This document shows, piece after piece, positions 1,788-50,624 of a stretch of DNA of 64,000 nucleotides. How positions within the stretch are numbered: the stretch's first letter is position 1; each line of letters opens with the position of its first letter. Below the pieces are notes generated by a model that was not told the origin of the DNA, did not search any database, and saw only the letters and a program-made list of their open reading frames with translations. A program made the translations under genes and the position numbers. Source of the DNA: an uncultured bacterium (GTDB lineage: Bacteria > Actinomycetota > Geothermincolia > Geothermincolales > Geothermincolaceae); assembly GCA_963765625.1 (NCBI GenBank), contig CAVXXD010000005.1, forward strand, positions 322,008 to 386,007, read 5' to 3'.

Positions 1788-1988
1788 TCTTACACCTCCT
1801 GCTCAACGGACCTGGGCATACCGGAAGCCGGGGAAGAGTGTAAACGTCGCTGCGAAGAGGGCCCAACAGAATCAGCATGTGGCTACTGATGATTGTTGTC
1901 TTGGGATGACCGCTAGTCAACCACCGGGGCAACCGATGAGCATAACGCGAGGTAGAATCGTTGAAACAAGTCGACAATCGACCCCATG

Positions 1989-2018
1989 TAAAAAGGGGCG
2001 GACCGAAGCCCGCCCCTT
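1989..2018 (-). terminator. Rho-independent terminator downstream of the acetate-transporter gene
   Basis: GC hairpin AGGGGCGG-accgaagc-CCGCCCCT followed by a T-tract on the minus strand, placed immediately after the stop at 2040. Confidence 0.5.
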
Positions 2019-2039
2019 GTAGATGCTGAGATTTCCGGT

Positions 2040-2687: not shown

Positions 2688-2821
2688 TGCTTCTTCTACT
2701 CTCCTTTCCTTTCTCTCTGCGTTTCTACTACAACCGATCCAACAAAACTTACGCAAACGGCAAGATGATAGCATGGCGCCACACTGCTAGCAACATGAAT
2801 TTTTCCGGTCACGGAAAAGCT

Positions 2822-2846
2822 TAAAGGGCGGCCTTCAGGCCGCCCT
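2822..2846 (-). terminator. Terminator hairpin downstream of dfx
   Basis: GGGCGGCC-ttca-GGCCGCCC hairpin followed by a T-rich tract on the minus strand. Confidence 0.45.
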
Positions 2847-2879
2847 CGCGCCGTATCAGGTATCCGAGGAGCTAGCGGC

Positions 2880-3257
2880 TCAGCTGCTCTTCCAGAGGCC
2901 GTGCAGGTTGCAGTATTCGCGTGCGTAGGCCCCGTCCGGCGTGGCGCCGAAAAGGGCTTCCGGGGCGCCGTTGACCTCCAGGAAGATGCGGTAGCTCAGG
3001 TTGCCCTGGATGAGCTGCGCCCACTCGATGTGGTGATCCTCGGCCATGGGGTGCGGCACACTCCCGATCTTGACCGTGATGCCTTCGGCGGTCTTCTCGA
3101 TCACCGGCACGTGCTTCTCGACGGCGGCATCCACCGAGTCCTCCACCTGAAGGGCCATGGGCTGTCCGCAACAGACCAGTTCTCCCTTGCCGGCGGTTAG
3201 CACCTCCACTATGTTGCCGCAGACCTCGCACTTGTAGACCTGAAGTCTCTCCGTCAT
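2880..3257 (-). CDS. dfx: Desulfoferrodoxin (two-iron superoxide reductase)
   Basis: N-terminal desulforedoxin-type CEVCGNIVEV...CCG domain, followed by a neelaredoxin domain carrying the HPM...HHIEW iron ligands. Confidence 0.85.
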   Translation of the reverse strand: MTERLQVYKCEVCGNIVEVLTAGKGELVCCGQPMALQVEDSVDAAVEKHVPVIEKTAEGITVKIGSVPHPMAEDHHIEWAQLIQGNLSYRIFLEVNGAPEALFGATPDGAYAREYCNLHGLWKSS

Positions 3258-3370
3258 CTGTTGTAACCTCCTTTATCAGCAAGCCTTACGTTCCAAGAGA
3301 TTCTTATACCCTCGAAGCCCGGCAGCTAAACGGCTCCGGCTCGTCCCCCCTCCTCTTCATGCCCCAACCC

Positions 3371-3396
3371 AAAAGCGGGCCGGCAAGGCCCGCCCT
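3371..3396 (-). terminator. Rho-independent terminator
   Basis: GGGCGGGCC-ttgcc-GGCCCGC hairpin followed by TTTTGGGTT on the minus strand, downstream of the 3431..3748 ORF. Confidence 0.45.
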
Positions 3397-3430
3397 CATG
3401 CACGATCGGCCTTCGCGGCCAAGACGGCCG

Positions 3431-3748
3431 CTATTCCTTGTTGAACATCTCGAAGAGCATGTGAGGTGTGATAGCATCCTCCCGCGTTTCGCTGGCATAG
3501 TCGTCGATGTAGGGTACGGCCAGCTTATTCCAGGTCTCATGGTCCCAGGGGCTGTCGTTGTTGATGATGGCCACCGTGTATCCCTCGCCGTCGTTGGTCA
3601 TGGCCTGGATCTCCTGCGTCTTGACATTTTTCTCCAGTATCTCGGTGATGGCGTCCCGTAGCAGGGTAAGCGCCGCACTGTTCCCTACGATACTGGCCTT
3701 GTCATGAAAGAAGAACTGAGAAAAAATGTGCAGCAAGGGATAGTCCAC
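3431..3748 (-). CDS. Hypothetical protein
   Basis: 105-aa ORF with a terminator downstream and no recognisable motif. Confidence 0.35.
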   Translation of the reverse strand: MDYPLLHIFSQFFFHDKASIVGNSAALTLLRDAITEILEKNVKTQEIQAMTNDGEGYTVAIINNDSPWDHETWNKLAVPYIDDYASETREDAITPHMLFEMFNKE

Positions 3749-3940
3749 CCTTGTTCACCTCCTCGTCACGCTCCAAGCTCAACGCTTCACTTAGTTCGAT
3801 GACTATTGTAACACGTTGAAGAGAATAACGTGCTTGTAAACGAGCTGAAAAATGTCGGCTCCAGGGAAGCACAAACCAGGGCGGAAAGGAATGGGAATTT
3901 GCCTTGCGCCGTGAAACCCTGCTCCTGGAGCCTGACGATA

Positions 3941-4421: not shown

Positions 4422-4497
4422 GGGCCGCTAGCTCAGTTGGTAGAGCACCGGACTTTTAATCCGTAGGTCGAGGGTTCGAGTCCCTCGCGGCTCACCA
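4422..4497 (+). tRNA. tRNA-Lys (anticodon TTT)
   Basis: 76-nt cloverleaf: GGGCCGC acceptor stem, GTTCGAGTCC T-loop, CTTTTAA anticodon loop and 3' CCA. Confidence 0.85.
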
Positions 4498-5596: not shown

Positions 5597-5811
5597 GCTG
5601 CATCGTCTTTCTCTTATCGAGTTTTCTTAATTATATCCGGTTAAGACAAGACCACGTCCTTTAAATGGAGTTATAATTTCAGGGACTGAGAAAAATCATG
5701 TTCCAATGCAACCACAAGTGGGGATAATAAATACAGGCTGCATTGATAACCAGGTTGTTCAACCGGGAAGACAAGGAGTGGTGGGGCACTCCGCAAAGGA
5801 GGTTGGGGCAG

Positions 5812-6761
5812 ATGGCTGGAAGCACTAAGGTCGGCAAAAACCGTAGCTCCCGCGTGTTGTGGGAGATCACCGCGCTGGTGGTGGTGGTGTACCTGATCGG
5901 GGGTCTTGCGGCTTTCCTCATTGCGCGGAACTCCTACAACGACCTGTCGCGGGAGAGCGTGGACAAACTCATCGATGAGAAAGCCCAGACCATCAGCTCC
6001 AGCTACGACTACCTGGCCACCGCGGAGATGGAGATCATGCTGGAGAAGTACGGGGTCGAGAACATCGACCGCGCCCAGGCTCTACGCCAAGCTGCTGGCG
6101 GGAAACAAGAACGATATCGACCCACTGCAGGAGTACCTCGACACGACCACCCAGGGCATGGTCGAGAAGGGGCTGCTGGGGCTGCAGAAGATCTTCATCG
6201 TCGTACCGCCCAGCTCCCTGACGCCGAATCCCATCACCATCGCTTCCAACGATCCCGACCTTGTTTTCTACGACTTCCCTGAAAGCATCGACCAGGCCAT
6301 TGAGGATGGTGAATCATGGATACTGCTGGAAGAGGGCATTCCAGCGCTGGGCCTGGAGGACGAGCAGCTGGTGACCCTGACCCAGGTCACCTCCCCGGTG
6401 GCTCCCGACGTCAAAGTCTCTTTCATCGGGATCACCCCCATGCACTCAGACATCGCCGAGATCAAAGCATTCTACGATGACGAGAAGAAGGACACCATGA
6501 TGCGAGTGGGGCGTGATCACCCTGATATCTATCGTGATCATCATGGTCCTGACCTTCTTCGTCCTGCGCCTGCTCATCCGCAAGCGCATCACCGAGCCCA
6601 TCGACATCCTCTCGGCCGAGGCCGGAGAAGTAATGGAGGGCAACCTGGACATCGACGTAGTGGTGCACGAGGGAGGCGAGTTCGAAGGGCTGGAGACCGC
6701 CTTTAAAAAGATGGTGGAGAGCATCCGCACCTACATCGCCAGGAGCCTCGGAGGAGAATAG
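5812..6761 (+). CDS. Membrane sensor-like protein (TM, extracytoplasmic domain, TM, HAMP), copy 1; reading frame broken twice
   Basis: Three consecutive ORF pieces (frames 1, 2, 0) line up with the paralogue at 6783..7732. The ATG at 5812 follows an AAAGGAGG RBS. The protein ends with a HAMP-like segment (RITEPIDILSAEAGEVMEGNLDIDV...) and has no output domain. Confidence 0.55.
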
Positions 6762-6782
6762 ACACAAAGGAGGTCTGAACCA

Positions 6783-7732
6783 ATGGGTGGGAACGGTAAA
6801 CCAGGCAAGAACCGAAGCTCCCGCGTGCTGTGGGAGATCACCACGCTGGTGGTGGTGGTGTACCTCATCGGGGGGCTGGCAGCTTTTCTTATAGCGCAGA
6901 ACTCCTACAACAACCTGTCCGAGGAAAGCGTCAATAAACTGATCGAGGAGAAGGCCAACACCATCTCCTCCAGCTACAACTACCTGGTCAAGGCGCAGAC
7001 GGACATCCTCTTCAAGGAATACGACACTGCCAGCGTCGACCTGCCCACGTTCTACGCAAGGCTGGTGGCGGGCGACAAGAACGACCTCGACCCCCTGCAG
7101 GTCTACATCGACACCAAGATGGAAGCGATGGTGGAAGAAGGCCTGCTGGACCTGCAATACCTCTTCATGATCATTCCCCCCAACCCGCTCTCCAAGAACC
7201 CCATCACCCTCGCGTCCAGCGACCCGGAACTGGTCTTCATGGACATGCCCCCGGAAATATCCGATGCCATCGAGGAAGAGAAGAGCTGGGTCATCCTGGA
7301 GGACGGCATCCCGGCGCTCGGCCTGGAAGGCGAGCAACTGGTGACCTTCACCAAGATCACGTCGCCCTTCGAATCCAACGTCATTATCAGCTTCGTGGGC
7401 ATCACCGACATGAGCTGGGACATCGCCGAGATCAGGCAGTTCTACGACGACGAGAAGAAGGACGCCATGGTCGAGTGGGGCGTGATCGACCCTGCATCTC
7501 CATCGTGATCATCATGATCATTACCTTCTTCGTCCTCCGCTGGCTCATCCGCAAGCGCATCACCGAGCCCATCGACATCCTCTCGGCCGAGGCCGGGGAA
7601 GTGATGGAGGGCAACCTGGACATCGACGTAGTGGTGCACGAGGGAGGCGAGTTCGAAGGGCTGGAGACCGCCTTCAAGAAGATGGTGGAGAGCATCCGCA
7701 CCTACATCGCCAGGAGCCTGGGTGACGGTTAA
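6783..7732 (+). CDS. Membrane sensor-like protein (TM, extracytoplasmic domain, TM, HAMP), copy 2; one frame disruption just before the second TM helix
   Basis: AAAGGAGG RBS. ORFs 6783..7508 and 7475..7732 are about 60% identical to copy 1. The gene is followed by a strong terminator. Confidence 0.55.
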
Positions 7733-17759: not shown

Positions 17760-18551
17760 GTGAAAACCATGCCGGCAAATGCTTTCATGCAACCGCTGAC
17801 GGACGCCTGGCAGGGCTTCGTCGAATACCTCCCCTTCATCGTCGAGGGACTGGTGGTGATGCTCGCCTTCTTCTTGATAGCGAAGGTGGTGCGCTTCCTG
17901 GCGGAGAGAATTATTTACAGAATGAAGAAGTCTGAGCACGCGGCGCGCCTGCTTTCGCGCCTGGTCTTCTACGTCATCATCTGCGGCGGCGCCGTGGCCG
18001 CCCTGGCGGTCATGGGGGTAAACCCCGCCCGCCTGGCCACTTCGCTGGGGCTGCTGGGCATGGGCCTGGGCATCGCCCTGCGCGAGGTCATCGAGAACTT
18101 CATGGCCGGGGTAATACTGCTGGTGCAGAGGCCCTTCACCGTGGGCGACCAGATCACCTTCGGCGACTACGAGGGCATCGTGGAGGATGTGCGGGTGCGC
18201 GACACGGTTATCCGCCTCTACGACGGGCGGCTGGTCTACGCCCCCAACGCCCAGATATTCCGGGGCCCGGTGGTCAACAACACTTCCTCCCGCCGGCGCC
18301 GGGTCGACTTCGAGGTGCTCATCAAGCACGAGGAAGACGTGCCGACGGCGCTGGACGCCGCGGCGGAGACCCTCATGGAGGTCGACGGCATCCTGACTGA
18401 GCCCGCTCCCCTGGTGGTGGCGCGCGGCCTGGAGGAGAGCGGCGTGGTCCTGCGGGCCTACCTGTGGGTGGACCCGGTCAAGACCAGCATCCTCGAGACG
18501 AAATCCTCGGCCATCGCCGGCGTCAAGGTGGCCCTGGCCGACATGTTCTAA
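17760..18551 (+). CDS. Mechanosensitive ion channel family protein (MscS-like)
   Basis: TM helices followed by the MscS beta-domain signature FTVGDQITFGDYEGIVEDVRVRDTVIR. Confidence 0.8.
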   Translation: MKTMPANAFMQPLTDAWQGFVEYLPFIVEGLVVMLAFFLIAKVVRFLAERIIYRMKKSEHAARLLSRLVFYVIICGGAVAALAVMGVNPARLATSLGLLGMGLGIALREVIENFMAGVILLVQRPFTVGDQITFGDYEGIVEDVRVRDTVIRLYDGRLVYAPNAQIFRGPVVNNTSSRRRRVDFEVLIKHEEDVPTALDAAAETLMEVDGILTEPAPLVVARGLEESGVVLRAYLWVDPVKTSILETKSSAIAGVKVALADMF

Positions 18552-18638
18552 GGGGTCAGGTCTATCGTTCATTATTTTCTGCCAGATATTGGTAATACCA
18601 GATAATGGTTGAAAATAATAAACGATGGACCTGACCCC
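18552..18638. repeat. Palindromic repeat element, family A copy 1 (GGGGTCAGGTCTATCGTT...AACGATGGACCTGACCCC)
   Basis: 87 bp with 28-bp terminal inverted repeats around an AT-rich core containing TGGTAATACCA. Near-identical to the element at 39094..39180. Confidence 0.7.
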
Positions 18639-21836: not shown

Positions 21837-24800
21837 TCAGGGCGCGTACCCGATGGAACAGGTGCCCCAGGTCCGGCCCGCGTCGTACATGGCACGCTCG
21901 CAGACCACCCCGCCCCCACTGGAGGTGACCACGGTGGAGACATCGTAATCGCTGACGTAGTCGTTCAAGTAGACGGTGACGCGGGAGCCGGCCTTGACGA
22001 CGTAACCTTTCATGCCTTCGACCGGCCCGGACGAAGTAACGAAGGAAACGTCCACCTTGACGTCGACAGGGTTGGGATTCTGTATCAGCAGGTAGGTATC
22101 GATACCGCCGGCCGTGCAGCCCTCGGCCAGGTACCAGGTGGAAGAAGGCACGGTGGCGCCGATGGAGCAGGTGCCCCAGGTGCGGTCCCGGTTATACATG
22201 GAACGCTCGCATACCACCCATCTTCCCATAGTAGTCGTCACCACGGCGGAGACATCGTAATCGGTGACATAGTCGTTGAGCCGGAAGGAGCGGCGCCCTT
22301 TCTCCGGAACGATCACGTCCTGAAGGGCTTCAGGTTTCAATTCACCGGATGAGGTCTGAAGCGTGATGTTGATTTCGGATGAAAGATTTCCCGGGTTCTG
22401 CACCAGCAACCAGGTCTCGAAGCCCTCGCCGGTGCAACCCTCGGGCAGGTACCAGGTTGCGGCGGGAGCAGTGGCGCCTACGGATGCATGCGCCCACTGC
22501 CGTCCGTTGCCGTACATGGCCCGCTCGCAGACCACGTCTCCGCCCGAGGAAGTCACGACTGTAGATAGATTCCAGTCCACCCTTGATTCCGATAGGTTAT
22601 AGGACCTTCGAGAATGAGCCGGAACAACCAGGCCGGACTGGCCCGGTATGGGCTCTACAGGATAGGACTCGAGCCTCATCGTGCCAGGCAGCATGAACGT
22701 AATGTCCACGGTCACGTCAGTATCGCCCGGGTTCTGCACGAGAAGCCAGGTCTCGAAACCCTCGCCGGTGCAACCCTCAGCCAGGTACCACGTGGACGAC
22801 GGGGTGCGGGTGCCGACGGTCTCGGTGGCCCAGGTCCGGCCGTCGCCGTACATGGCGCGCTCCACTACTATCTCCCCTCCGGTAGCCGAGACCACGGCTG
22901 AGATGTCGTAGGAAGTGAAGAAGGACCCGGCGTTGAAGGAGACGCGTGTATTGCCGGCCAGCTCGTATCCCTGCAGCGCGGCCGGTGCGAAGAGCCCGTC
23001 GGCGGTCGGGAAGGAGATGTCCAGGGTCACGGGGTCCTGGTTGGAGTTGGCCACCAGTATCCAGGTCTCGAAGCCCTCGCCGGTGCAGCCCTCGGCCAGG
23101 TACCAGGTGTCGGTGTCGGCGGCGAAGGTGGCCACTACCTCGTGGTCTTCCCTTACGTTCGAGATGACGTAAGGACTGGAGACGGCGACCGCCGCCCCGT
23201 TATCGGTAATGCTGGCGATGTGGCAGTGGGCGGCGGGCGTGATGGCGATGGAAGCGTTGCTGCCCCACTCAACCGATTGAGTCGTCGGGGTGACGGTGCC
23301 ATTCCCATCGGCCGATGCATTTACCGTGAAGTTATCGATGGCGAAACCGGCGGTGAGATCCCAGGCAGCCTCGGCGGTGAAAGACCAGGCCGCCTCGGTG
23401 GAGACCTCGGTCCCCGCCTCGGTCCAGCCGGCGAAGTGCCACCCTTCCGCCGGAGTGGCCACCAGCAGCACGGTGTCCCCGTAATAGTACGCGCCGGCAC
23501 CTTTAGCCGTGCCGTTTCCCGAGACCGTTACAGAGACGGGGCACGGGTCCGGCTCGAAGGAAGCGACCACGTCGTGGGCTTCTTTTACATTGGAGATGAC
23601 GTAGGGATCGGCCGGGGTCACCGACACCCCGTTGTCGGTGAGGAAGGCGAGGTGATAGCCGGTGTCGGGGACTATGTCGACGGAGGCCGCGTTGCCGTAG
23701 GCCACGCTCTGGGTAGAGGGATCGGCGGCGCCGTGTCCGCTGAAAGAAGCCGAAGCGGTCACCTGGTAGAAGTCGGCGGCGAAGGTCACCTCCACGTTGT
23801 GCGCGCCCGTGACGTTGTTTATGACGTAAGTGCCGCCGGTCACCGGCTGGGCCACCCCATTGTCGCTGATGGTCTCGGTATGGTAACCCGCGTCGGGAGT
23901 CAAGGTGATGGTGGCGGTGGAGCCGTAGTCAACGCTCTGGTTGGCTGGGCTGACGTTTCCGTGCCCACCGGAGACGTAGGCGTTGACGCCGAAAGTGTCG
24001 ATGGCGTAGACCACCTGGACCTGGTGCCAGGAGGTGACGCCGGAGATGACGTAGGGGTCGGATGCCGCCTGAGGCACTCCGTTGTCGACGATGTAGGCGG
24101 GGTGATAACCCGTATCGGGGGCCAGGTCGATGGAGGCGCCGGTACCGTAAGCCACGCTCTGGTTGGCGGGGCTGACGCTGCCGTGACCGCCGGGAACCGA
24201 GGCATCCACGGCGACGTCGAAGCTCACCACGATGTCATGGGTTGCCGCCACATCTGAGACAACGTAAGGGTTTGCAACGGCTTGCGTGGTCCCGTTGTCC
24301 GTAATCCCCGCTATCGAGCAGTGCTCGCCGGCGGTGATCTCGATGGTGGCGTCGTCTCCCTGCTCGACCCACTGGCTGGCCGGGGAGACGCTCCCGCCTC
24401 CCCCGGCGACCGAGGCATTGACCACGTACCCGATATCGGCCGAATAGCGGATGCCGTCCGCCCCCTGCCATATCACGCATGGATTGCCGGCCGCGCTCAC
24501 TTCAACCTCGGGACGGACGTTCTCGGTATCGGCGGTCAAGGCATGGGGAGGGCCCCAGCCGTTTCCGCCATCGGCGGAGTAGAACACCTGAGGTACCGAG
24601 GAGACCGAGCCTTCCCAAGCCAGGTGGCGGAAGCCGGATGGATCTATTGAAAAAGAAGGATGGCCGTTGTCCGAGCCCGTGGATACCTGCTCCGGCTCGG
24701 ACCAGCCGGCCGGGGAAGCGGTACGGCAGTAGATCTGCCTGCCTGACCCCGTGTTGCCGGACCAGGCGACCTGCGCGTAACCGGAGGCGTCCACCGCGAT

Positions 24801-26852
24801 CCGCGGGTTCGAATTATCCGTACCGCTTGACAGCTGAAGCTCAGCCGACCAGGCGGAGCCTTCTTTTCGAGTGAAATAGGCTTGCATCGAGGAATCGGCG
24901 GCGATGGCCTGCCATACCACGTTGGGGCGGCCATATACGTCGACGGCGATGTCCGGGTTGTACTTGTTGGATCCCCAGGAAAGAGCGGCCGGCGAGCTCC
25001 AGCCGGGGCCGGAGTCGGTGGAATAGTAGACCTGGTCCATCATGCCGTCGTTACCCTGCCAGACCACGTGGGACCGGCCGTCCGAGCTGATGGCTATGCG
25101 GGGCAAGAGGCCGATGGTGCCGCCGGATACGGTCTCGGGCGCGGACCAGCCGGTGCCGGTATCGGAAGAGTAGACCGCCTCCGTTCCGCTCCGCCACACC
25201 GCGTGAGGATGCCCTGAAGCATCCACGGCTATGGAGGGTTCGTGGTTGTCGGCGCCGCTGGAGATAAGCCGCGGGTTCGACCAGCCGGACCCGCTGTCCG
25301 ACGAGTAGAATATCCTCGAGATATCGGCATCCTGCTCGTTGTCATGATAGAAGGCCTCCCAGACCGCGTGCCGGTTTCCCCCCGCATCGACGGCTAACGC
25401 CGGCTTCTTCTCCTCGAAGCAGTCCGACAAAGCCTGCTTGGCGGACCAGCTGCCGCCCGCCTTGGATGCATAGAAAACGTGGTAGTCCCCTCTCGCTGTA
25501 TCGTTCTCGTACCAGACCAGATGGGGACTGCCGCTCGAGTCCATGGCGATCTCGGGATTGCTGTCGAATATCCAGCCGTAAGCGAAGTCGGAGCAAGTGG
25601 AAACGAGCTCCCGCGTCCATCCCGATCCGAGATTATCCGCGTAATAAATATTAAGGGTGTCGAAATCGGCCAGGCCCCCACCAAGCCCCTCCATCCAAGT
25701 CACATGAGGGTGCCCAGCCGCATCCAGGGCTATCCGGGCATTTTCGCCCGTGCTGGCGGCGGCATCGAGCTTGACCGGCGCCGACCAGCCCGAACCGAGA
25801 TCAGCGGCATAAAAGACTCCCTCGCTAGCGCACCAGACGGCATGAGGATGACCGTTATTGTCCACGGCTATCCTGGGCTGACTGACGCTGAAAGAAGTGC
25901 CCAGGGTTGTTGGAGCAGCCCAACCTGAGCCGGAATCGGTGGAATACAGGATGTTTTTCCCTTCTTCGTCCACCCAGACGGCATGAGGGTGATCTTCCTC
26001 ATCTATCGCCAGATCGGGGGGGTCCCACAGGTAATTGCTGGTACAGGAGCCTTCCAGTTCGGAGTGGGTAAATTCGCCGGCATGCGAGTAATCAACCAGG
26101 TGAACCAGGCACTTAGCCGCCGGTTCATATGCCTTGTGCGAGTTGATGATGATATGGGGATGGTCCCCCGAATCGATGGCTATCTGGGGACAGAGGTTGT
26201 TCTCGTTGGCCCTGATGATGCGCTCTCCTATCCAGCCGTTTCCGAGATCGGCATTGTAAATAGCCACCGAATATGCCGAAAACCAGCTATCGCCCCATTG
26301 ATAGTGCCATACGACGTATGGATGCCCCTGCGAATCGACCGCCAGGTCAGGCCGCGGCGGATTGTAAGCGCCCTCATTATGGTCATCGGAAATCTGGACC
26401 GGGGCGGACCAGCCGGTGCCGAGGTCGGCGGTATAAAAAATGTTTGCGTACCCGCCTGCTTGCTGTTGCCAGACCGCATGGGGGTGGCCGTTGACATCGA
26501 TAACCAGTTGAGGATCGAGATCGTGCCTGGACTCCGTCGCCGTCGACAACCGCCGGGGATAGGACCAGCCAGCGCCGTTGTTGGTCATGTAATAGGCCTG
26601 CAGTATGCCCTGGCTGTCCTCCCCCTGCCACACCGCATGGATATTGCCGCTGGCGTCTATCTCTATCTGTGGATAACGGTTGTTGCCCGAATCTGGGGTG
26701 ATCTCCCGCGGGGATGTCCACGCCTCGGAAGAGGGCGATACGGCGGGAAAGGCTATTACGAGTAGCGCCGCTGTCAGCATCACAGCCAGAAAAACTGCCG
26801 GCCGGTAAGGTCTTGTCCAGTTTTTCCTGCGATTAAATGCCGTGAAGATCAT
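21837..26852 (-). CDS. Giant secreted/cell-surface protein (1671 aa): signal peptide, many BNR/Asp-box repeats, InlB B-repeat-like domains, then six C-terminal repeats of about 95 aa
   Basis: Start at MIFTAF after an AGGAGG RBS. Repeated SxDxGxGW Asp-boxes. GGG(S/T)VSP InlB B-repeat-like modules. Six repeats with the WYLAEGCTGEGFETWLLVQNP motif. Confidence 0.7.
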   Translation of the reverse strand: MIFTAFNRRKNWTRPYRPAVFLAVMLTAALLVIAFPAVSPSSEAWTSPREITPDSGNNRYPQIEIDASGNIHAVWQGEDSQGILQAYYMTNNGAGWSYPRRLSTATESRHDLDPQLVIDVNGHPHAVWQQQAGGYANIFYTADLGTGWSAPVQISDDHNEGAYNPPRPDLAVDSQGHPYVVWHYQWGDSWFSAYSVAIYNADLGNGWIGERIIRANENNLCPQIAIDSGDHPHIIINSHKAYEPAAKCLVHLVDYSHAGEFTHSELEGSCTSNYLWDPPDLAIDEEDHPHAVWVDEEGKNILYSTDSGSGWAAPTTLGTSFSVSQPRIAVDNNGHPHAVWCASEGVFYAADLGSGWSAPVKLDAAASTGENARIALDAAGHPHVTWMEGLGGGLADFDTLNIYYADNLGSGWTRELVSTCSDFAYGWIFDSNPEIAMDSSGSPHLVWYENDTARGDYHVFYASKAGGSWSAKQALSDCFEEKKPALAVDAGGNRHAVWEAFYHDNEQDADISRIFYSSDSGSGWSNPRLISSGADNHEPSIAVDASGHPHAVWRSGTEAVYSSDTGTGWSAPETVSGGTIGLLPRIAISSDGRSHVVWQGNDGMMDQVYYSTDSGPGWSSPAALSWGSNKYNPDIAVDVYGRPNVVWQAIAADSSMQAYFTRKEGSAWSAELQLSSGTDNSNPRIAVDASGYAQVAWSGNTGSGRQIYCRTASPAGWSEPEQVSTGSDNGHPSFSIDPSGFRHLAWEGSVSSVPQVFYSADGGNGWGPPHALTADTENVRPEVEVSAAGNPCVIWQGADGIRYSADIGYVVNASVAGGGGSVSPASQWVEQGDDATIEITAGEHCSIAGITDNGTTQAVANPYVVSDVAATHDIVVSFDVAVDASVPGGHGSVSPANQSVAYGTGASIDLAPDTGYHPAYIVDNGVPQAASDPYVISGVTSWHQVQVVYAIDTFGVNAYVSGGHGNVSPANQSVDYGSTATITLTPDAGYHTETISDNGVAQPVTGGTYVINNVTGAHNVEVTFAADFYQVTASASFSGHGAADPSTQSVAYGNAASVDIVPDTGYHLAFLTDNGVSVTPADPYVISNVKEAHDVVASFEPDPCPVSVTVSGNGTAKGAGAYYYGDTVLLVATPAEGWHFAGWTEAGTEVSTEAAWSFTAEAAWDLTAGFAIDNFTVNASADGNGTVTPTTQSVEWGSNASIAITPAAHCHIASITDNGAAVAVSSPYVISNVREDHEVVATFAADTDTWYLAEGCTGEGFETWILVANSNQDPVTLDISFPTADGLFAPAALQGYELAGNTRVSFNAGSFFTSYDISAVVSATGGEIVVERAMYGDGRTWATETVGTRTPSSTWYLAEGCTGEGFETWLLVQNPGDTDVTVDITFMLPGTMRLESYPVEPIPGQSGLVVPAHSRRSYNLSESRVDWNLSTVVTSSGGDVVCERAMYGNGRQWAHASVGATAPAATWYLPEGCTGEGFETWLLVQNPGNLSSEINITLQTSSGELKPEALQDVIVPEKGRRSFRLNDYVTDYDVSAVVTTTMGRWVVCERSMYNRDRTWGTCSIGATVPSSTWYLAEGCTAGGIDTYLLIQNPNPVDVKVDVSFVTSSGPVEGMKGYVVKAGSRVTVYLNDYVSDYDVSTVVTSSGGGVVCERAMYDAGRTWGTCSIGYAP

Positions 26853-27006
26853 TTTGCCGCCTCCTGTCCGGTCCGCGCGTGAATCATCTTTTTCTTGCAA
26901 TCATTATATCTTTAAGCAAAGCAACATAGCTTCTCGACATCATTATCGGCTCACCCTCGATTCCCATATTAAGGTTATCGGAAGTTGAGTAAGTATCCTT
27001 CAGGAT

Positions 27007-36384: not shown

Positions 36385-37569
36385 TCAGTAGCCGGGAACG
36401 CCCAGGGCGCGCAGGTTTTCCAGGGCAGTGCGGTCGTTGGGATAGAGCTCCAGGGCTTCCTGAAAATCGGCTGCCGCCGCCGCGGTATCCCCCATGGCCA
36501 GGTAGAGGAAGGCGCGTTCGTCGTAATACCTGAAGTATATGGGCGTGCCCAGGCTCATCGCTGTTCCGATGTCGAGCAGGGAAGCCTGGTAATCCCCCAT
36601 CTCCCTCAGGGCCATGCCGCGCCTCATATAGGCCCGGGGCGTATCCGGAAGCTTCTCGATGCCCTGGTCCAGGCAGGACAATCCTTCATCCGTCCGGCCC
36701 AGCATCACCAGCGCGTAGCCCATCGCGGGATAAATGTCCGCCAGGCCTTCTTGTATCGCCAGCGCCCTCTCGCAATCCAGCAGCGCTTGCTGGTAATCGC
36801 CCAGGTCACAGAAGACGATGGCCCTCCTCTCGAGGGCGTCGGTCGACTCCGGGTCCTGTTCCATAACCCGGTCGAAGTCGCGCAGGGCTGCTTCATATTC
36901 CTTGAGCGCGGTGTATACGGTGCCCCGTGTTGTGAGACAGGGACCGTGGTCCGGTTTGAGTAAGAGGGCCTGGTTTATGTCGGCCAACGACTCGTCAATC
37001 CTATTGAGCATGTAATTGGCTGCGCTCCGGTGGGCAAAGTACTCCCACTTGCTCTGATCGAACGAGATGGCCCTGGAGAAGTCCGTTAAGGCGCTTCGAT
37101 AAAACTCCAATGCCATATTGCATGCACCGCGGCCGGCAAAAAGATCTGCGTTTTCGCTGTCCAGGCTGATTGCCTGGTCGAATTTGACCAGGGCCCTGTC
37201 GTATTCACCCTTCTTGTAAAGTGAAGCCCCCTGATCTGCCAGGGCAGCAGCTTCTTTCTCACCGGACTTGTCTTTCAGGTGGGGGTATGTAATCAAAATT
37301 AAAAAGGAGGCGGCAGCCAGTAAGCCGGCAACCAGCACCGTGATGAGTATAGTCACCTTGGCCTTTGACGCTTTAGCCGGCGGCGGAGGCAAAAGAGGGG
37401 CCTGGTAATACTGGTACTGGGGATACTGGTACTGGGGATACTGGTACTGGGGATACTGGTACTGGGGATACTGGTACTGGGGATACTGGTACTGAGCCGG
37501 AGGGTTCCCGCAGGACGGGCAGGCCGGCGCGCCCTCCGGCATCTCCTTCCCGCACTTTATGCAGTACAT
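36385..37569 (-). CDS. Zinc-ribbon / TPR-repeat membrane protein with a (YQYPQ)n low-complexity linker
   Basis: N-terminal CIKCG...CPSCG zinc ribbon, a YQYPQ-repeat linker, one TM helix, then at least seven TPR motifs. Confidence 0.7.
   Translation of the reverse strand: MYCIKCGKEMPEGAPACPSCGNPPAQYQYPQYQYPQYQYPQYQYPQYQYPQYQYYQAPLLPPPPAKASKAKVTILITVLVAGLLAAASFLILITYPHLKDKSGEKEAAALADQGASLYKKGEYDRALVKFDQAISLDSENADLFAGRGACNMALEFYRSALTDFSRAISFDQSKWEYFAHRSAANYMLNRIDESLADINQALLLKPDHGPCLTTRGTVYTALKEYEAALRDFDRVMEQDPESTDALERRAIVFCDLGDYQQALLDCERALAIQEGLADIYPAMGYALVMLGRTDEGLSCLDQGIEKLPDTPRAYMRRGMALREMGDYQASLLDIGTAMSLGTPIYFRYYDERAFLYLAMGDTAAAAADFQEALELYPNDRTALENLRALGVPGY
37402..37497. repeat. Perfect 15-bp tandem repeat, about six units, inside the zinc-ribbon/TPR gene
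   Basis: The unit atactggtactgggg occurs five times in perfect tandem, flanked by degenerate units. Each unit is in frame and encodes five amino acids. Confidence 0.8.
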
Positions 37570-39001: not shown

Positions 39002-39093
39002 GTCCTACCTCCCTGCTAGATGGGGCGCCGCACACCGGGCGCCATTCCCTTGAGGACATTCTAAGTGAGGAAGCGGGCACAAGCCAACCGCAT

Positions 39094-39180
39094 GGGGTCA
39101 GGTCTATCGTTTACTATTTCCATCCAGAATTTACCATTACCAGAATATGGTAAGAAATAATAAACGATAGACCTGACCCC
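39094..39180. repeat. Palindromic repeat element, family A copy 2
   Basis: 87 bp, GGGGTCAGGTCTATCGTT...AACGATAGACCTGACCCC. Lies between the stop of 39182..40474 and the start of the CrtI-like gene. Confidence 0.7.
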
Positions 39181-39181
39181 A

Positions 39182-40474
39182 TTAACGGGCGATGAGCGGG
39201 GGGATGCGGGCGGAGGTGCGGTGGAGGCGGGCCAGGAGCAGGAGCCAGGCGGATTCCCAGGGGGGCAGAGGGGCCATCCTGATGGGGTTGACCTTGCTCA
39301 GGGCAGCCAGGGATGCGATGATGTCGCGGAGGTTGTTACAGCCATCGACCCGGCGCACGTTGCGCTTGCCCAGCCGGCCGGCCAGTAAGGTGTAGGCTTC
39401 CTGTGAAGCGCAATCGCCCACGGTCAAGGCCTTGCCGCTTATCGACGCCAGGGTCCCGGGAGACCAGCCCTTTCCCATGAGAATGCTGAAGTCTCCTCCC
39501 CCCGCGAAGTCGACGTAGAGCATCTGCAGCACCGCCAGGGTATTCAGCCAGCAACCCTCGGGACAGCATCTCTCTTCTCCCTTTAGCAGCTTCACATAAG
39601 GTGGGAAAACGTCGAGCATCTCCCAGGTGTAGTTACGGAGGTAGGGCTGGAGGTCGCCAATTACTTCAATCTTCTCCAGGTCGATCTCACCCCAGCCGTC
39701 CTCCGCTGCCAGGGTCAGGTGCTCTATCTCGCGAGGGTCGACGCCCATGACGTGCGATCCCACCGCGTCCGCGGCGACGGTGTCGTCGCTCCCGATAAAG
39801 ACACCCAGCTTCTCCACGCACCGGTCCTGCAAGCCTTCCGGGGCATGATGGCCGTGGTTGAAGGCGTAAAGGCCCTCGATCAGGGTGAAGTCGGGCCTTA
39901 CCACGCTCATGATGTCCGCCAGCTTGCGGTGTAGCTTCCAGTTGTGGTCGCGTATGCGGTCGGCCTGCGTCACCAGGCCGAACTGGTTCTTTACCCCCAG
40001 GGTCACCTGGGCCATGAGGTGCATCTTCAGCTTGGGCATGTTCAGGTAAAAGACGTCGCCGCGGCCGTCAATGAGCCTGTCCCTGACCCAGGCGGAGACG
40101 CGCACGATGTCTCCCAGGCGGGGCAGGACCACCGGCAACTGGGGGCCTTCGTCCAGGTAGACGGGGATGGCCCCTTCCTGTTTAGCTGCCTTCTCCAGGC
40201 CGGAGACCCGGAAGACCAGGCGGGTGAAGTTTCCCTGGGTGCAGTTCTCGATGACGTATACCCGCCGGGCGCCGCCTTTTTTCAGGACGCGGATGACGGC
40301 GCGGAGGGCGTCGGGGTGGGTAAAGGTGTTGGGTTTGAAGTCGACGGCGTTGACCTTGATGTGAACCTCTTCGCGGCCCGCGAGCAATGTCGCGACTCCG
40401 CCGAACGGTGCGAAGACCTCCTCCACCGCCCGGTCAAGGCCGGCATCCGCCGCAGCCACCGCCACCTTGCTCAT
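39182..40474 (-). CDS. Conserved hypothetical protein (possibly DUF362-like)
   Basis: 430-aa ORF containing CCPEGC. The family assignment is tentative. Confidence 0.4.
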   Translation of the reverse strand: MSKVAVAAADAGLDRAVEEVFAPFGGVATLLAGREEVHIKVNAVDFKPNTFTHPDALRAVIRVLKKGGARRVYVIENCTQGNFTRLVFRVSGLEKAAKQEGAIPVYLDEGPQLPVVLPRLGDIVRVSAWVRDRLIDGRGDVFYLNMPKLKMHLMAQVTLGVKNQFGLVTQADRIRDHNWKLHRKLADIMSVVRPDFTLIEGLYAFNHGHHAPEGLQDRCVEKLGVFIGSDDTVAADAVGSHVMGVDPREIEHLTLAAEDGWGEIDLEKIEVIGDLQPYLRNYTWEMLDVFPPYVKLLKGEERCCPEGCWLNTLAVLQMLYVDFAGGGDFSILMGKGWSPGTLASISGKALTVGDCASQEAYTLLAGRLGKRNVRRVDGCNNLRDIIASLAALSKVNPIRMAPLPPWESAWLLLLARLHRTSARIPPLIAR

Positions 40475-40487
40475 AACGCCTCCGTAG

Positions 40488-40587
40488 GAAATTTGGGGTC
40501 AGACCCCTTCTCCACTTTCCCTGACGTTGATCATATATCAAAGCCTAAAAAGGGAGAAAGTGGAGAAGGGGTCTGACCCCAAATTTC
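40488..40587. repeat. Palindromic repeat element, family B copy 1 (GGAAATTTGGGGTCAGACCCCTTCTCCACTTTCCC ... reverse complement)
   Basis: About 35-bp inverted-repeat arms around a 30-bp AT-rich loop. Shares the GGGGTCAG terminus with family A. Confidence 0.7.
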
Positions 40588-40596
40588 CCAACCCCG

Positions 40597-43320
40597 TTAC
40601 ATGCCGGTGGGGCCTTCGGTGAGGTACTTGTCGGGGTCGGCGTCGAAGTCCTTTTTGCACCCGGGGCTGCAGAAGTAGTAGGTGTTGCCCTGGTACTCCG
40701 AAGTCGCGGCGGCCCCTTTCTTCTTGACGGTCATGCCGCACACCGGATCTATGGCTTTTCCGAGCATCTCATCCTCCTCCTTTTTCTTCTCCACTGTGGT
40801 TGTACCCGCCGGGTAGTCATCCTTAAACCTGCGGAGGCGGAGGGAGTTGGTTACCACCGACACCGAGCTGAAGGCCATGGCAGCCGCGGCATAGATGGGG
40901 TTGAGCAACCCCTCCTTGCCGAAGAAAGGATAGAGAATGCCGGCGGCGATGGGGATGCCGATGACATTGTATATAAAGGCCCAGAAGAGGTTCTGCTTGA
41001 TGGTACGCAAGGTGCGCCGCGAGAGTTTAAGGGCGGTCGGCCACCCGGCGCAGGTCCTCGCCCATCAGGGTCACGTCGGAAGCCTCGATGGCCACGTCGG
41101 TACCACTGCCCACGGCAATGCCCACATCCGCCTGGGCCAGGGCCGGCGCGTCGTTGATACCGTCCCCCACCATGGAGACGACGCGGCCCTCTTCCTGCAG
41201 GCGCTTCACTTCGGCTGCCTTATCGCCCGGGAGGACCTCGGCCAGTACCCGGTCGATGCCCGCCTGGTCCGCGATGGCCTGGGCGGTGCGGCGGTTATCA
41301 CCGGTTATCATGGCCACTTCCACCCCGAGCCCCTTGATCTCCCGGATCGCCTCGATCGCCTGGGGTTTGATCACGTCGGCCAGGGCCATCAGGCCCAGCA
41401 ACTTGCCGTCCCTCGCCAGGAAGATGGGGGTCTTGCCCTCGCCCGCCAGAAGTTCGGCCTTCTCCCCCAGAACGCTGAGGTCATACTCCTTCTCCTGCAT
41501 GAGGCGCCGGTTGCCGAGGAAGACCTCGCTTGAGCCCAGTCCGGCACGGATGCCCCGGCCGGGCAGGGCGTCAAACTCGTCCACCTTGATGAAACCTACG
41601 CCCCTCTCCTCCGCAAGCTGCACCACCGCCGTACCCAGCGGGTGCTCGCTGGCCTTCTCCACCGAAGCCGCGAGGGAGAGGAGCTCGTCCTCTTCGATGC
41701 CGTCCGTGAATATGTCGGTGACCACCGGCCGGCCGGCCGTGAGGGTCCCGGTTTTGTCGAAGACCATGGTCTGGATTTTCCCGATGCGCTCCAGGCTCTC
41801 CCCGCCCTTGATGAGAATGCCCAGTTCGGCTCCCTTGCCCGTACCCACCATGATGGCGGTGGGTGTGGCCAGGCCCAGGGCACAGGGGCAGGCGATGACC
41901 ATCACCGCCACGAAGTTGAGCAGGGCCAGGTTGAAGACCGGTTCCACCCCGGCCAGCATCCATATCACGAAGGTCAACACGGCGATGCTGATGACGGTGG
42001 GTACGAAGACGGCGGCCACCCGGTCGGCCAGGCGTTGGATGGGGGCCTTGGAGCCCTGGGCTTCCTCCACCATGCGGATGATCTGGGCCAGCACGGTATC
42101 CCGCCCCACACGCTCGGCGCGGAAGCGGAAGCTGCCGGTGCCGTTGATGGTGGCCCCCACCACCTCGTCGCCGGGGTTCTTCTCCACCGGGATGGGTTCG
42201 CCGGTGAGCATCGACTCGTCCACCGCGCTGTGCCCCTTCCAGCAACACCGCCGTCCACCGGGATCTTCTCGCCCGGGCGCACCACGATGACCTCCTGCAC
42301 CATCACTTCTTCTATGGGGATGTCCTTCTCTTCGCCATCGCGTACCACCCGCGCCGTCCTGGCCTGCAAGCCCACCAGGCGGCGGATGGCGTCGTTGGTC
42401 TTCCCTTTGGCCCGCGCCTCAAGGTAGCGGCCCAGCAGTATCAGGGCGATGATGGTGATGGAGGAGTCATAGTAGACGATCATCTCCACCCCCGCCTCCT
42501 CCACGAAACCGGGGAAGAAGGTGATGATGAGGCTATAGATAAAGGCGGCGCTGGTGCCCACGGCGATGAGGGTGTTCATGTCCGCGGTGCCGTGTTTGAG
42601 CGCCCCCCAGGCGCCCCGGTAGAACTGGGCCCCAGCCCAGAACTGCACCGGTATGGCAAGTATTAACAATATGTAATTAATAGTGTGGTGCCATTCCATG
42701 GGAAAAGACATCATGGACATGGAGAGGGGGATGGCGATGGCCGCCATCACCAGGCTGAAGATCAGCTTGCGGAGGATGTCCCGCCGCTCCTTCTCGTGGA
42801 ACAACTCCTCGGCGGCTTTGCGTTCATCGTCTGCTTCCCCCGGGGTGAGGATGTGGTAACCCGCGTCCTTCACCGCCCGGACCATGTCGCCCACCGAGAC
42901 CAGGGTGGGGTCAAAGGCCACCGTGGCCTTCTCGGTGGCGAAGTTGACATTTGCCTCCGCTACACCCGGCAGCGAGCGCAGGGCTTTTTCCACCCTGGCC
43001 ACGCAGGTGGCACAGGTCATGCCGGATACCGAGAGGATGACCTTCTCCTGCTCGGCCGTGTAGCCCAGTTCCTCGATGGTCTTGATCAGCTTCGACTGGT
43101 CCACCTGGTCTGGGTCAAAGGTCACCGTGGCCTTCTCGGAAGCGAAGTTGACCGACGCCTGGCCCACTCCGGAAATCCTGGACAGGCCCTTCTCGATGGT
43201 GGTGGCGCAGGTGGCGCAAGACATGCCGCCTACCTTGATGATGACTTTCTTCCCGCCCTCCGGCGGGGTCTCCGTCCTCATGGTCTCCTCTTCCATCCGT
43301 TCCACGCTCCCATCATTCAT
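40597..43320 (-). CDS. copA: Copper-translocating P-type ATPase with two N-terminal heavy-metal-associated domains and a C-terminal YHS domain; two frameshifts
   Basis: Two GMSCATC / GMTCATC heavy-metal-associated motifs, CPC, DKTGTLT and GDGINDAP. The C-terminal piece has the YHS/TRASH-like motif DPVCGM...YYFCSPGC. The three ORF pieces overlap near 42230 and 41020. Confidence 0.8.
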
Positions 43321-49031: not shown

Positions 49032-49162
49032 CGGGTACCTCCTCTTGTCGCGATGTATGCTGACTTTTTCTGTCTTCCAGGGTGCTGCTGTATGCACAGC
49101 CATATTATTTTACTATAAGATGAATCCCACACCAGCATTTTTTAAGAAATGGAGTGATGCAC

Positions 49163-49345
49163 ATGGAATGCGTGAACCGTGACAAGAACCTCAAGAGGTG
49201 CAACTGCACCTACGAGCCCTGCTCCCGCAAGGGCTGCTGTTGCGAATGCCTTCACTACCACCGGGTGCTGGGGGAGCTGCCCGCCTGCTACTTCACGCCC
49301 GAGGCCGAGCGCTCTTACGACCGCAGCATCGCCAACCTGCGTTAG
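49163..49345 (+). CDS. Small conserved cysteine-rich protein (CNCTYEPC...GCCCEC motif)
   Basis: 60 aa with an AATGGAG RBS. The Cys pattern resembles a widespread small cytosolic protein family. Family name uncertain. Confidence 0.45.
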
Positions 49346-49435
49346 GAAAGTTGGGGTCAGACCCCTTCTCCACTTCAAGCCCAGCCACGTTCTGAGATGG
49401 GAGAAAGTGGAGAAGGGGTCTGACCCCAACTTTCC
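49345..49435. repeat. Palindromic repeat element, family B copy 2
   Basis: GGAAAGTTGGGGTCAGACCCCTTCTCCACTT...AAGTGGAGAAGGGGTCTGACCCCAACTTTCC. The arms extend to include the stop codons of both flanking convergent genes. Confidence 0.7.
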
Positions 49436-50232
49436 TAACGCGTAAATATCGTCACCAGCTCAAGCGGCCGCACGTCAGCCCGGGCGGCCAGGTCGCCCTC
49501 CCGCAAGGCCAGCCCCAGCCACCCTGATGAGTCGGTGTAGAGCAGGAGTTCGCCCCGGCCCACATCCCCGTAGGTCGATGCCACCATCGATTCCCAGATG
49601 GTTTCGCCTATCTCCACCACGACCTTGTCTCCCGCCGCGGCCCGGCCTTCCAGCTTGGCGGCCTCCACGCCCAGGCGCAGATTGCCGAAACGGTCCACGT
49701 CGATGACCTGGCAGCAGAGCGCGCCAGGGACTTCCCACGCCTCCTTCCAGGGTGATGGGGCCAGACAGGAGACATCTACCCGAGGGCCCGCCTGCCCGGC
49801 TGGCCACCCCCCGGCCAGGCGGGCCGCCGCCGGCGCGAAGACGTCCCGGCCGTGGAAGGTGGGGTGGACCGGCTCAAGAAAAAGTTCCTCCGCCTCCACC
49901 GACCAGGCGGCGCTGATCCCGCCCAGCCGGCCGGCCGCCGGTAAGAGCAAACCGTTGTCCGGCCCCAGCAGCAGGTCTCCTCTGCCACATTCCAGTAAAA
50001 GGACCCGGCGCTCCGTGCCCACGCCAGGGTCCACCACCGCCATGAACACACCTGGCTCGAACCAGGGTGCGGCGGCGGCAAGAGTCACAGCGGCCTTGCG
50101 GATGTCGAAGGGTGGTATGTCGTGGGTTATGTCGAAGGTCACAATCCCGGGTGCCGCGGCACGAATGACCGCCTTGACCACCGCCACGAACTCGTCGGCG
50201 GTGCCGAAGTCCGTCAGGAGGTAGACGGGGAG
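49435..50232 (-). CDS. SAM hydrolase / SAM-dependent halogenase family protein (DUF62, S-adenosyl-L-methionine hydroxide adenosyltransferase-like)
   Basis: YLLTDFG N-terminal motif and VVDPGVG motif. Possible GTG start. The ORF as called overlaps the YjbQ gene. Confidence 0.55.
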   Translation of the reverse strand, partial: LPVYLLTDFGTADEFVAVVKAVIRAAAPGIVTFDITHDIPPFDIRKAAVTLAAAAPWFEPGVFMAVVDPGVGTERRVLLLECGRGDLLLGPDNGLLLPAAGRLGGISAAWSVEAEELFLEPVHPTFHGRDVFAPAAARLAGGWPAGQAGPRVDVSCLAPSPWKEAWEVPGALCCQVIDVDRFGNLRLGVEAAKLEGRAAAGDKVVVEIGETIWESMVASTYGDVGRGELLLYTDSSGWLGLALREGDLAARADVRPLELVTIFTR

Positions 50233-50624
50233 CACGGCAGGACTTCCACTATCACGGTACGCGTGCGGGGACCGTCGAACTCGCACAAGAACACGCCCTG
50301 CCAGGTACCCAGGACCATGCGCCCTTCCCGCACCGGGATGGTCTTAGACGACCCGGTTATGAGTGCCTTGATGTGGGAATCGGCATTGCCTTCGCTGTGG
50401 CGGTAGCCGGCGTTGCGGGGCACCAGCCTCTCCAGGCCCGCCAGTATGTCCTTCACCACGTCGGTGTCGGCGTTCTCGTTGATGGTTATCCCTGCCGTGG
50501 TGTGGGGGACATAGACCAAGCATGCACCATCGCTGATGCCGCTCTGTTCCACCGCTTTCTTGACCCGGCCGGTGATGTCGACCATCTCGGCCCGCCCGCT
50601 CGAGACAACCTCAAAAGCAAGCAA
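50214..50624 (-). CDS. YjbQ-family secondary thiamine-phosphate synthase enzyme (UPF0047)
   Basis: VYVPHTTAGITINENAD...GTWQGVFLCEFDGPRTR is characteristic of YjbQ. Confidence 0.7.
   Translation of the reverse strand: MLAFEVVSSGRAEMVDITGRVKKAVEQSGISDGACLVYVPHTTAGITINENADTDVVKDILAGLERLVPRNAGYRHSEGNADSHIKALITGSSKTIPVREGRMVLGTWQGVFLCEFDGPRTRTVIVEVLPCSPSTS

Follow-up and report, generated by a model that had tools for sequence, protein, structure and literature searches.

In a 64,000-nt stretch of DNA from an uncultured actinobacterium of the family Geothermincolaceae (the window; NCBI GenBank assembly GCA_963765625.1, contig CAVXXD010000005.1, positions 322,008 to 386,007 of the forward strand), two nearly identical palindromic hairpins, designated family B, are located directly at the 3' ends of genes. 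We interpret family B, with moderate confidence, as a dispersed non-coding palindrome of the repetitive extragenic palindromic (REP) doublet type, similar to REP doublets forming hairpins (REPINs) and bacterial interspersed mosaic elements (BIMEs), that is, a non-autonomous mobile hairpin with an effect on the 3' ends of mRNAs. Elements of this kind, including REPs, BIMEs, REPINs, and palindromes resembling miniature inverted-repeat transposable elements (MITEs), are already known. New are the sequence family, its host lineage, the lack of a canonical tag, and a polar core found across phyla.

The two copies and their core motifs have the following window positions:

40487-40588: family B copy 1 (site 1), whose arms (40487-40519 and 40556-40588) pair perfectly around loop 40520-40555

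40495-40507: copy 1, 5' arm, core GGGGTCAGACCCC (A form)

40568-40580: copy 1, 3' arm, core GGGGTCTGACCCC (T form)

49339-49441: family B copy 2 (site 2), whose arms (49339-49375 and 49405-49441) pair perfectly around loop 49376-49404

49353-49365: copy 2, 5' arm, core GGGGTCAGACCCC

49415-49427: copy 2, 3' arm, core GGGGTCTGACCCC

The arms are 33 bp long at site 1 and 37 bp at site 2, are 100% complementary, and enclose loops of 36 and 29 nt, respectively. The portion of copy 2 common with copy 1 spans positions 49345-49435. The first-pass annotation, which was made from the sequence alone, had described a second hairpin family at 40488-40587 and 49345-49435, and the limits found here are slightly wider. 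It had also reported near-identical arms and unrelated loops, and the two copies indeed match at 32/35 and 33/35 arm positions, with no similarity between the loops. Its arm length of about 35 bp is close to those observed, whereas the description of the arms as GC-rich applies to the core only, as their GC content is 52-54% compared with 62% for the window. The sole internal difference between the arms of the two copies is a T in place of a G at position 6 (GGAAATTT and GGAAAGTT), which is compensated in the opposite arm. The 60-nt flanks of the copies are unrelated, with 14-18/60 identical positions, and the similarity of the arms therefore does not result from a local segmental duplication, the explanation that would have undermined the earlier proposal.

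Each arm contains a 13-nt mini-palindrome, GGGGTC(A/T)GACCCC, which takes the A form on the 5' side and the T form on the 3' side. Family B therefore consists of two short palindromes that are inverted relative to each other and separated by a spacer. The arm 23-mer TTGGGGTCAGACCCCTTCTCCAC occurs four times in the window compared with 0.00 expected, and the 13-mer core, allowing at most one mismatch, ten times compared with 0.48 expected. No other local inverted repeat in the window comes near the length of the B hairpins and of two hairpins of family A, described below. The RNA folds predicted for the window hairpins have energies of -70.7 to -84.8 kcal/mol (z = -11 to -14.6). As DNA, the whole B element reaches -44 to -51 kcal/mol, and a lone arm is unstable (-4.3 kcal/mol, z about -0.2). 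The two inverted units, separated by a spacer of free sequence, would fold into one 33-37-bp hairpin, either as RNA or when the DNA is single-stranded. None of the hairpins matches an Rfam family at or above its gathering score, which in the window only a tRNA passes, and under relaxed thresholds they match only generic miRNA-precursor hairpin models, far under the cut-offs. The element is approximately 100 bp long, and the small open reading frames (ORFs) called across it are artefacts of the palindrome, as had been suspected: three reading frames are interrupted by stops, and a search of 5.8 billion protein clusters with concatenated arm translations was essentially empty, yielding 41 candidates and one match, which is another assembly of the same locus.

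Both B copies and both A copies are positioned 0-8 nt from stop codons. The genes bordering family B are:

39182-40474, minus strand: DUF362 gene, bordered 5' by B copy 1 and 3' by A copy 2; used as the synteny anchor

40597-40770, minus strand: YHS domain (C-terminal part of a CopA-like ATPase), with its stop 8 nt from B copy 1

49154-49345, plus strand: gene of a small Cys-rich DUF6485 protein, with its stop TAG (49343-49345) in the stem of B copy 2

49435-50286, minus strand: gene of a SAM hydroxide adenosyltransferase (SAM_HAT), with its stop (49435-49437) in the stem of B copy 2

Site 1 separates two minus-strand genes. Along that strand, the TAA stop codon of the CopA/YHS ORF (40597-40599) is followed by 8 nt, the hairpin, 3 nt, the Shine-Dalgarno sequence GGAGG (40479-40483), 4 nt, and the ATG start codon of the DUF362 gene (40472-40474). 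The genes on either side of site 2 converge, and each terminates in CGT TAG, with its stop codon inside the outer stem. Judging from this position and from the biology of REP and Correia elements, B may be co-transcribed with the upstream gene, and its stable duplex might protect or mark the 3' end of the mRNA or be cut by RNase III. Such an effect on the mRNA would uncouple the expression of neighbouring genes. Because the stop codons are located in the stem or within 8 nt of it, B could also disturb the termination of translation. Liang and co-workers (Mol Cell, 2015) reportedly connect REPs, in the title of their article, with the regulation of translation, for which proximity to the stop codon is said to be required.

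The same position would be expected of a stem-loop that evolved in the host as a terminator or mRNA stabiliser, bidirectional at convergent genes and immobile, with the resemblance between copies arising by convergence or gene conversion. The consistent location at gene 3' ends agrees with this explanation, as do versions of the core in phages that are surrounded by A- and T-runs, for example downstream of a capsid gene, and the retention of the arms at an orthologous site across deep divergence. The window arms, however, lack a U-tract: neither a U-tract nor a T-run follows any arm on either strand, and a terminator scan of the window flags none of the hairpins. Most gene ends in the window are without any such hairpin. 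Furthermore, the 32-33 of 35 arm positions common to two unrelated loci include sequence of no relevance to pairing, and close relatives differ in the presence of an element, or in the family to which it belongs, at one and the same site. We therefore regard a host-evolved terminator or stabiliser as unlikely.

The window lineage is rare, and its proteins belong to clusters of one to four members. The nearest named homologues of the DUF362 protein, with 60-64% identity, are from metagenome-assembled genomes (MAGs) of Actinomycetota, including Candidatus Solincola tengchongensis as well as Geothermincolales/Geothermincolia, and two such genomes are syntenic with the window. On the basis of this one protein family and of synteny, the source organism is probably Geothermincolia-like. 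The loci compared with the window are listed below by nucleotide (nt) or amino acid (aa) identity. Site 1 is the YHS/DUF362 junction, site 2 is the SAM_HAT/DUF6485 junction, and the third site is that of A copy 2:

L011, 98.5% nt: site 1, B; site 2, B; third site, A

L071, 94.5% nt, noisy: site 1, B; site 2, B; third site, A

L069, 83-96% nt: site 1, A-like element; site 2, B; third site, A, truncated

L072, 83% aa: site 1, A-like element; site 2, empty; third site, empty

L073, 76% aa: site 1, none; site 2, none (unrelated spacer of ~50 nt); third site, none

L074, 74% aa: site 1, no element; site 2, a different doublet (B'); third site, empty

L076, 72% aa: site 1, none; site 2, none; third site, none

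L075, 62% aa: site 1, none; site 2, none; third site, none

In the empty site 2 of L072, the two stop codons overlap in GGTTAACG. The B' doublet of L074, which begins with CTAACTGAATTTGGGGTCAGACCCCAAATT, has the same core as B and differs in its flanks and termini, and each of its arms is a stable local palindrome. The distant syntenic loci L073, L075, and L076 contain no such hairpins across 14-21 kb. From this sequence comparison, the elements are insertions that have been gained, lost, and exchanged between close relatives, and are not ancient fixtures of their loci. As the comparison shows, B behaves as a non-autonomous insertion, which lands, is lost, or is exchanged in the short gap that separates a stop codon from the following gene.

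The finding of B arms in three further independent assemblies from two samples indicates that the element is not an assembly artefact. Errors of long-read assembly or sequencing at inverted repeats had to be considered, since the related assemblies are noisy, with 48-199 gap openings per ~20 kb, and the L069 contig starts with a fold-back duplication. Nevertheless, B arms recur at the same sites across four independent assemblies, the window included, and the same class of element is present in short-read metagenomes of the Joint Genome Institute (JGI) and in GTDB genomes, so that this explanation is effectively refuted. The duplication in L069 (positions 1-3750 of Contig_68685) is a 3.5-kb inverted copy of the sequence next to it, has inverted-repeat arms of 161 nt (3331-3491 and 3589-3749), and is probably a fold-back artefact of the assembly.

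The insertion boundaries bear on a further alternative, in which B is a MITE derived from an internally deleted DDE transposon, with terminal inverted repeats of ~33 bp, and is mobilised in trans by a TA-targeting transposase of the IS630/Tc1-like type, as are Correia/NEMIS elements. Site 2 reads T-TA-A in the empty L072 locus and T-TA-[GGAAAG...CTTTCC]-TA-A in the window, and TA also flanks B' in L074. The whole element consists of two inverted repeats around a short non-coding centre, and in a genome with 62% GC, targeting of TA would alone explain the position at stop codons. Traits of MITEs that are present in B are the terminal inverted repeats of 33-37 bp, the length of ~100 bp, the lack of coding capacity, and the clean empty site in L072. 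Site 1, in contrast, is flanked by TG and TA, and a TA duplication is therefore tentative only. As a general rule it is rejected for the wider class of doublets described below, as TA is present at both boundaries of 1/58. The conserved part is moreover the core, located mid-arm or at the foot of the arm, and not a common terminal sequence, and the termini of B and B' differ. No autonomous parent element with such ends was found in the 185,579 GTDB species genomes scanned with a 19-mer of the arm, or in plasmids or phages; blastn against plasmid and phage collections gave no match to the element. We consider an origin as a TA-targeting MITE quite improbable.

Family A was found at two positions in the window:

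18552-18638: family A copy 1 (GGGGTCAGGTCTATCGTT...AACGATGGACCTGACCCC), which begins at the base following the stop of an MscS-like gene (17760-18551, plus strand)

39092-39182: family A copy 2, which shares one base with the stop (39182-39184, minus strand) of the DUF362 gene

Family A hairpins, which start with GGGGTCAGGTCTATCGTT, have AT-rich interiors and abut stop codons. The sequences GGGGTCAG and CTGACCCC are common to families A and B, and eight of the nine GGGGTCAG sites in the window fall in the four elements. The first-pass annotation had placed this shared sequence at the terminus of both families. The sharing is real, and in B GGGGTCAG does not form the terminus but is set 8 nt into the arm. 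A relationship between the two families, which it had also put forward, is borne out by the common GGGGTCAG...CTGACCCC polarity and by relatives that hold an A-like element where the window holds B: a sister form, GGGGTCAGGTCTCGAWTATCGA...CTGACCCC, occupies the position of B site 1 in L069 (14482-14587) and L072 (9878-9986). The A-like copy of L072 contains an exact TATAAT in its interior. Motifs of the GGGGTCAG type also occur in tandem arrays, one in L073 (16270-16600) with a 75-bp unit starting with AAGCGGGGTCAGGCC, and one in an Actinomycetes MAG (L002 2639-2953) with eight direct copies of the 13-nt core.

The loop of B copy 2 (49376-49404) is hypervariable. In the alignment of four assemblies at site 2, 12 of 26 loop columns vary, and the arms and flanks are invariant save for two single-base indels in noisy assemblies. 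The window and L011 are 98.5% identical overall, yet differ at about ten loop positions. The more distant L069 has nearly the exact loop of the window, and the L011 loop is therefore the derived state. It forms a new 7-bp inner pairing (CTCGGCC/GGCCGAG), which we infer to be the signature expected of template switching within a quasi-palindrome, a process that would also keep the arms perfect. The complementarity of the arms may thus be maintained by selection for the hairpin, by template switching within the palindrome, or by both, while the loop would be free to change. Spacers of REPINs behave in the same manner, as no two are identical and all retain the hairpin structure (PMC3337134).

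The core is not restricted to the window lineage. The 19-mer scan of GTDB genomes gave ten scattered matches, one of which is a true doublet in a Vicinamibacterales MAG. Also among the matches is a hairpin of a Coprococcus MAG (L010 7541-7611; L005 2044-2099) with a 32-bp stem, in which 25 consecutive bases (GAAGTGGAGAAGGGGTCTGACCCCA) are common with the B arm; it is GC-rich within an AT-rich gut Firmicute and is located downstream of a gene 3' end. Scanning metagenomes with the pattern GGGGTCAGACCCCTTC-N30-60-GAAGGGGTCTGACCCC yielded 54 loci, of which about 45 are distinct; soil and rhizosphere are the main sources. Six of the loci come from one sample, agree in coverage, and appear to belong to a single genome, which would then hold six copies or more. 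The extensions of the stem on the inner and outer sides of the core differ by lineage yet pair, at 7.9/10 inner and 6.4/10 outer positions compared with ~2.5 by chance, the first three inner pairs of the metagenome doublets being imposed by the search pattern. In 16/58 doublets, the palindrome ends exactly at GGGG...CCCC, as it does in family A. The arms of one soil doublet (L032 769-885) hold, beside GGGGTCAGACCCC, a second mini-palindrome of like design, GGGGACCGTCCCC. Sibling families based on other palindromic 13-mers were not found in the loci collected, and the core sequence is not mentioned in the searchable literature, including PMC3733652.

Among the 44 wider-class doublets with a classified gene context, 25 are between tandem, 18 between convergent, and one between divergent genes, which matches the distribution of REP dimers in PMC3733652, and the gene 3' end is usually 1-20 nt from the core. 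An orthologous soil set has the gene order tsaD-element-folB-folK, with invariant arms, a randomised loop, and flanking proteins that are 54-100% identical. In four of these loci (L015 9184-9254 and its orthologues L028, L038, and L040), the arms are invariant even though the flanking proteins are only 54-78% identical. There, the tsaD frame extends through the doublet to the core, where a TGA ends it, and the ribosome-binding site of folB begins ~3 nt after the element.

The A form precedes the T form in all copies of the window lineage. In IMG/VR, A-first doublets were found at 3 + 4 loci and T-first doublets at 0 + 0, and three composition-matched control palindromes gave counts of 1, 0, and 0. 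Although the numbers are small, they point to a specific, polar unit. The IMG/VR contigs L077-L080 are real phages with capsid, portal, and terminase genes, and the stem of their hairpins is the same 13-nt core. The phage cores are flanked by A- and T-runs similar to those of bidirectional terminators (for example L078 2995-3025 and L077 3855-3917), and L078 contains eight cores in 13 kb, one of them just downstream of the capsid gene.

A palindromic, paired core that is conserved within variable surroundings could also represent two duplex-DNA sites for a dimeric protein, either nucleoid-associated or a regulator, recognising GGGGTC-N-GACCCC. The spacing between cores, which ranges from 18 to ~73 nt without phasing, is difficult to reconcile with such sites, and a symmetric dimer bound to duplex DNA would give no reason to expect strict A-first polarity. 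In addition, the sequence around the cores co-varies so that the hairpin is kept, and divergent promoter regions are avoided (1/44 classified). Paired protein-binding sites are thus a very remote explanation. The core hairpins have hosts as diverse as the Geothermincolia-like actinobacterium of the window, Vicinamibacterales, many soil lineages, phages, and a Coprococcus. It is conceivable, if doubtful, that an undescribed class of hairpin repeats, which would extend across phyla, is recognised through the polar 13-nt GGGGTC(A/T)GACCCC, has its own mobilising or binding enzyme, and undergoes templated rewriting of the loop by which the arms stay perfect.

If B is a mobile doublet of the REP type, the polar core hairpin is probably the target of an enzyme whose gene is located in another part of the genome. 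A transposase of the HUH/Y1 type similar to REP-associated tyrosine transposases (RAYTs) would be the leading candidate, and it receives no support from the tag or from linkage. In RAYT-associated systems, the cognate RAYT (PF01797) is encoded by a single-copy gene with the repeats on its flanks. The first-pass annotation had suggested a link to a RAYT-type enzyme, which we could not substantiate: a phmmer search with E. coli RayT found no ORF resembling a Y1 transposase, either in the window or across ~0.5 Mb from related loci. Clustering of the ORFs from the 54 metagenome loci gave orthologous sets only, and no recurrent neighbouring enzyme gene.

Several results weigh against the interpretation of B as a mobile, REP-like doublet. 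REPINs number tens to hundreds per genome, and the 64 kb covered here, out of a contig of 460,508 bp, hold only two B copies and two A copies, with no degenerate extra copies of B or A at up to three mismatches. High copy number of family B is unproven because the exact 19-mer of the arm is absent from close relatives among the GTDB species genomes and arm translations are essentially absent from the protein clusters. No similarity to E. coli RayT was detected at E<=10 in frames of at least 60 aa from the window and ~70 related loci by a single-sequence phmmer search, which has limited sensitivity, and Pfam scans of 38 window ORFs, roughly half of the gene calls, identified no transposase. The tetranucleotide GTAG or GTGG positioned 0-2 nt 5' of the REP stem, which defines canonical RAYT-associated REPs (PMC6006769), is absent from B, and in the wider class GT[AG]G is found in this position at 4/116 ends, about as often as by chance. 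The sequence preceding the B core stem is GGAAAKTT, and just one of the four arms has a GTAG nearby, 7 nt upstream. There is no consistent target-site duplication among the wider-class doublets. On the sense strand, seven G:U and nine A:C mismatches were counted, that is, no excess of G:U, and selection at the level of RNA is not demonstrated. Finally, the long retention at the orthologous soil site would equally fit an element maintained by the host.

The 38 ORFs scanned with Pfam encode ordinary genes of an anaerobe chromosome. The CopA-like P-type ATPase upstream of site 1 (40597-43320, minus strand) is divided into three ORFs (41974-43320, 41027-42223, and 40597-41010), whereas in relatives it is a single gene of 829-832 aa with a C-terminal YHS domain; the split gene is either a pseudogene or the product of indel errors in the long-read assembly. 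Other repeats in the window are of different kinds. A 15-nt tandem repeat, CTGGGGATACTGGTA, is present in ~7 copies at 37387-37521 and gives rise to a (YQYPQ)n stretch close to the N-terminus of a TPR protein (minus strand). A protein of 1687 aa (21837-26900, minus strand) with BNR, InlB-B-repeat, and DUF5719 domains is encoded by a sequence with many diverged internal repeats with periods of ~310-450 nt. A ~970-bp tandem duplication (5794-7722, 71-94% identity), whose ORFs have no Pfam match, is located downstream of a tRNA gene (4422-4494) and an acyltransferase.

If confirmed, the assignment of family B to mobile REP doublets would extend REP- and REPIN-like elements to an uncultured anaerobic lineage of actinobacteria. 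The sequence family with the core GGGGTCWGACCCC, which is absent from the literature, is recurrent in soil bacteria and phages, and its fixed polarity together with the lack of the canonical GTAG tag suggests an enzyme specificity unlike that of known RAYTs. The elements also matter for annotation, since they create spurious small ORFs, mark likely transcript boundaries, and supply or displace the stops of true genes, examples being the two genes at site 2 and the tsaD extension of the soil loci. Invariant arms enclosing a hypervariable loop in near-identical strains provide a natural system for studying the maintenance of palindromes.

Several known systems were compared with family B and set aside. 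Integron attC sites have the form 5'-RYYYAAC...GTTRRRY-3' with extrahelical bases, whereas site 2 has the opposite order, GTTAGGA...TCCTAAC, and a perfect stem. The list of Geobacter 'multicopy nucleotide sequences' (PMC2700814) includes nothing similar. A CsoR or copper operator was considered because site 1 follows a copper ATPase, and was rejected, as site 2 and 54 other loci are unrelated to metal genes. RAYT-associated REP was likewise rejected as a class label, since the GTAG feature was looked for and found to be missing. Intrinsic bidirectional terminators resemble B in having a stable stem-loop right after stop codons, and the phage and Firmicute versions of the core have A/T runs; B differs from them in the lack of a U-tract, in stems of 33-37 bp that are several times longer, and in the repetition of its sequence at unrelated loci.

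The Correia/NEMIS elements, which are MITEs of Neisseria, are similar to B in their long inverted repeats, their intergenic location, and a possible TA duplication, as at site 2 of the window. They are ~100-150 bp long and co-transcribed, and the RNA hairpin of Correia elements is bound or cut by RNase III, which alters the expression of neighbouring genes (PMC2649163). Unlike them, B has no sequence similarity to Correia/NEMIS, no conserved internal core with an integration host factor (IHF) site or promoter elements was shown for it, and its TA flanks are not general.

The GTAG- and CGTC-tagged REPs described by Di Nocera et al. 2013 (PMC3733652) differ from B, which has neither tag, and their description does not include its core. 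They share with the class of B convergent copies less than 20 bp from both ORF ends, unidirectional copies near the end of the upstream ORF, possibly structured spacers of 20-100 bp, and occasional insertion into coding ends. In each, a single polarity class of dimers predominates, which is head-to-head among these REPs and A-first in the class of B.

The REPINs and BIMEs of Pseudomonas and Enterobacteria, which are mobilised by RAYT/TnpA_REP, are separated from B by the GTAG/GTGG guide that B lacks, by the failure to find a RAYT in the window and the related loci, by the unit of B, which has a stem of only 5-6 bp and is unstable alone, and by the actinobacterial (Geothermincolia) host of B as opposed to their proteobacterial hosts. 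In its architecture, B closely follows these elements: two short imperfect palindromes are arranged in inverted orientation around a spacer, the whole doublet is a near-perfect hairpin of ~90-100 nt, and the spacers all differ while keeping the potential to form the hairpin. A central asymmetric base gives the doublets one predominant orientation, and, as is the case for B, they are extragenic, are positioned at the 3' ends of tandem or convergent genes, and persist for a long time at orthologous sites (PMC3337134, PMC3116915, PMC3733652).

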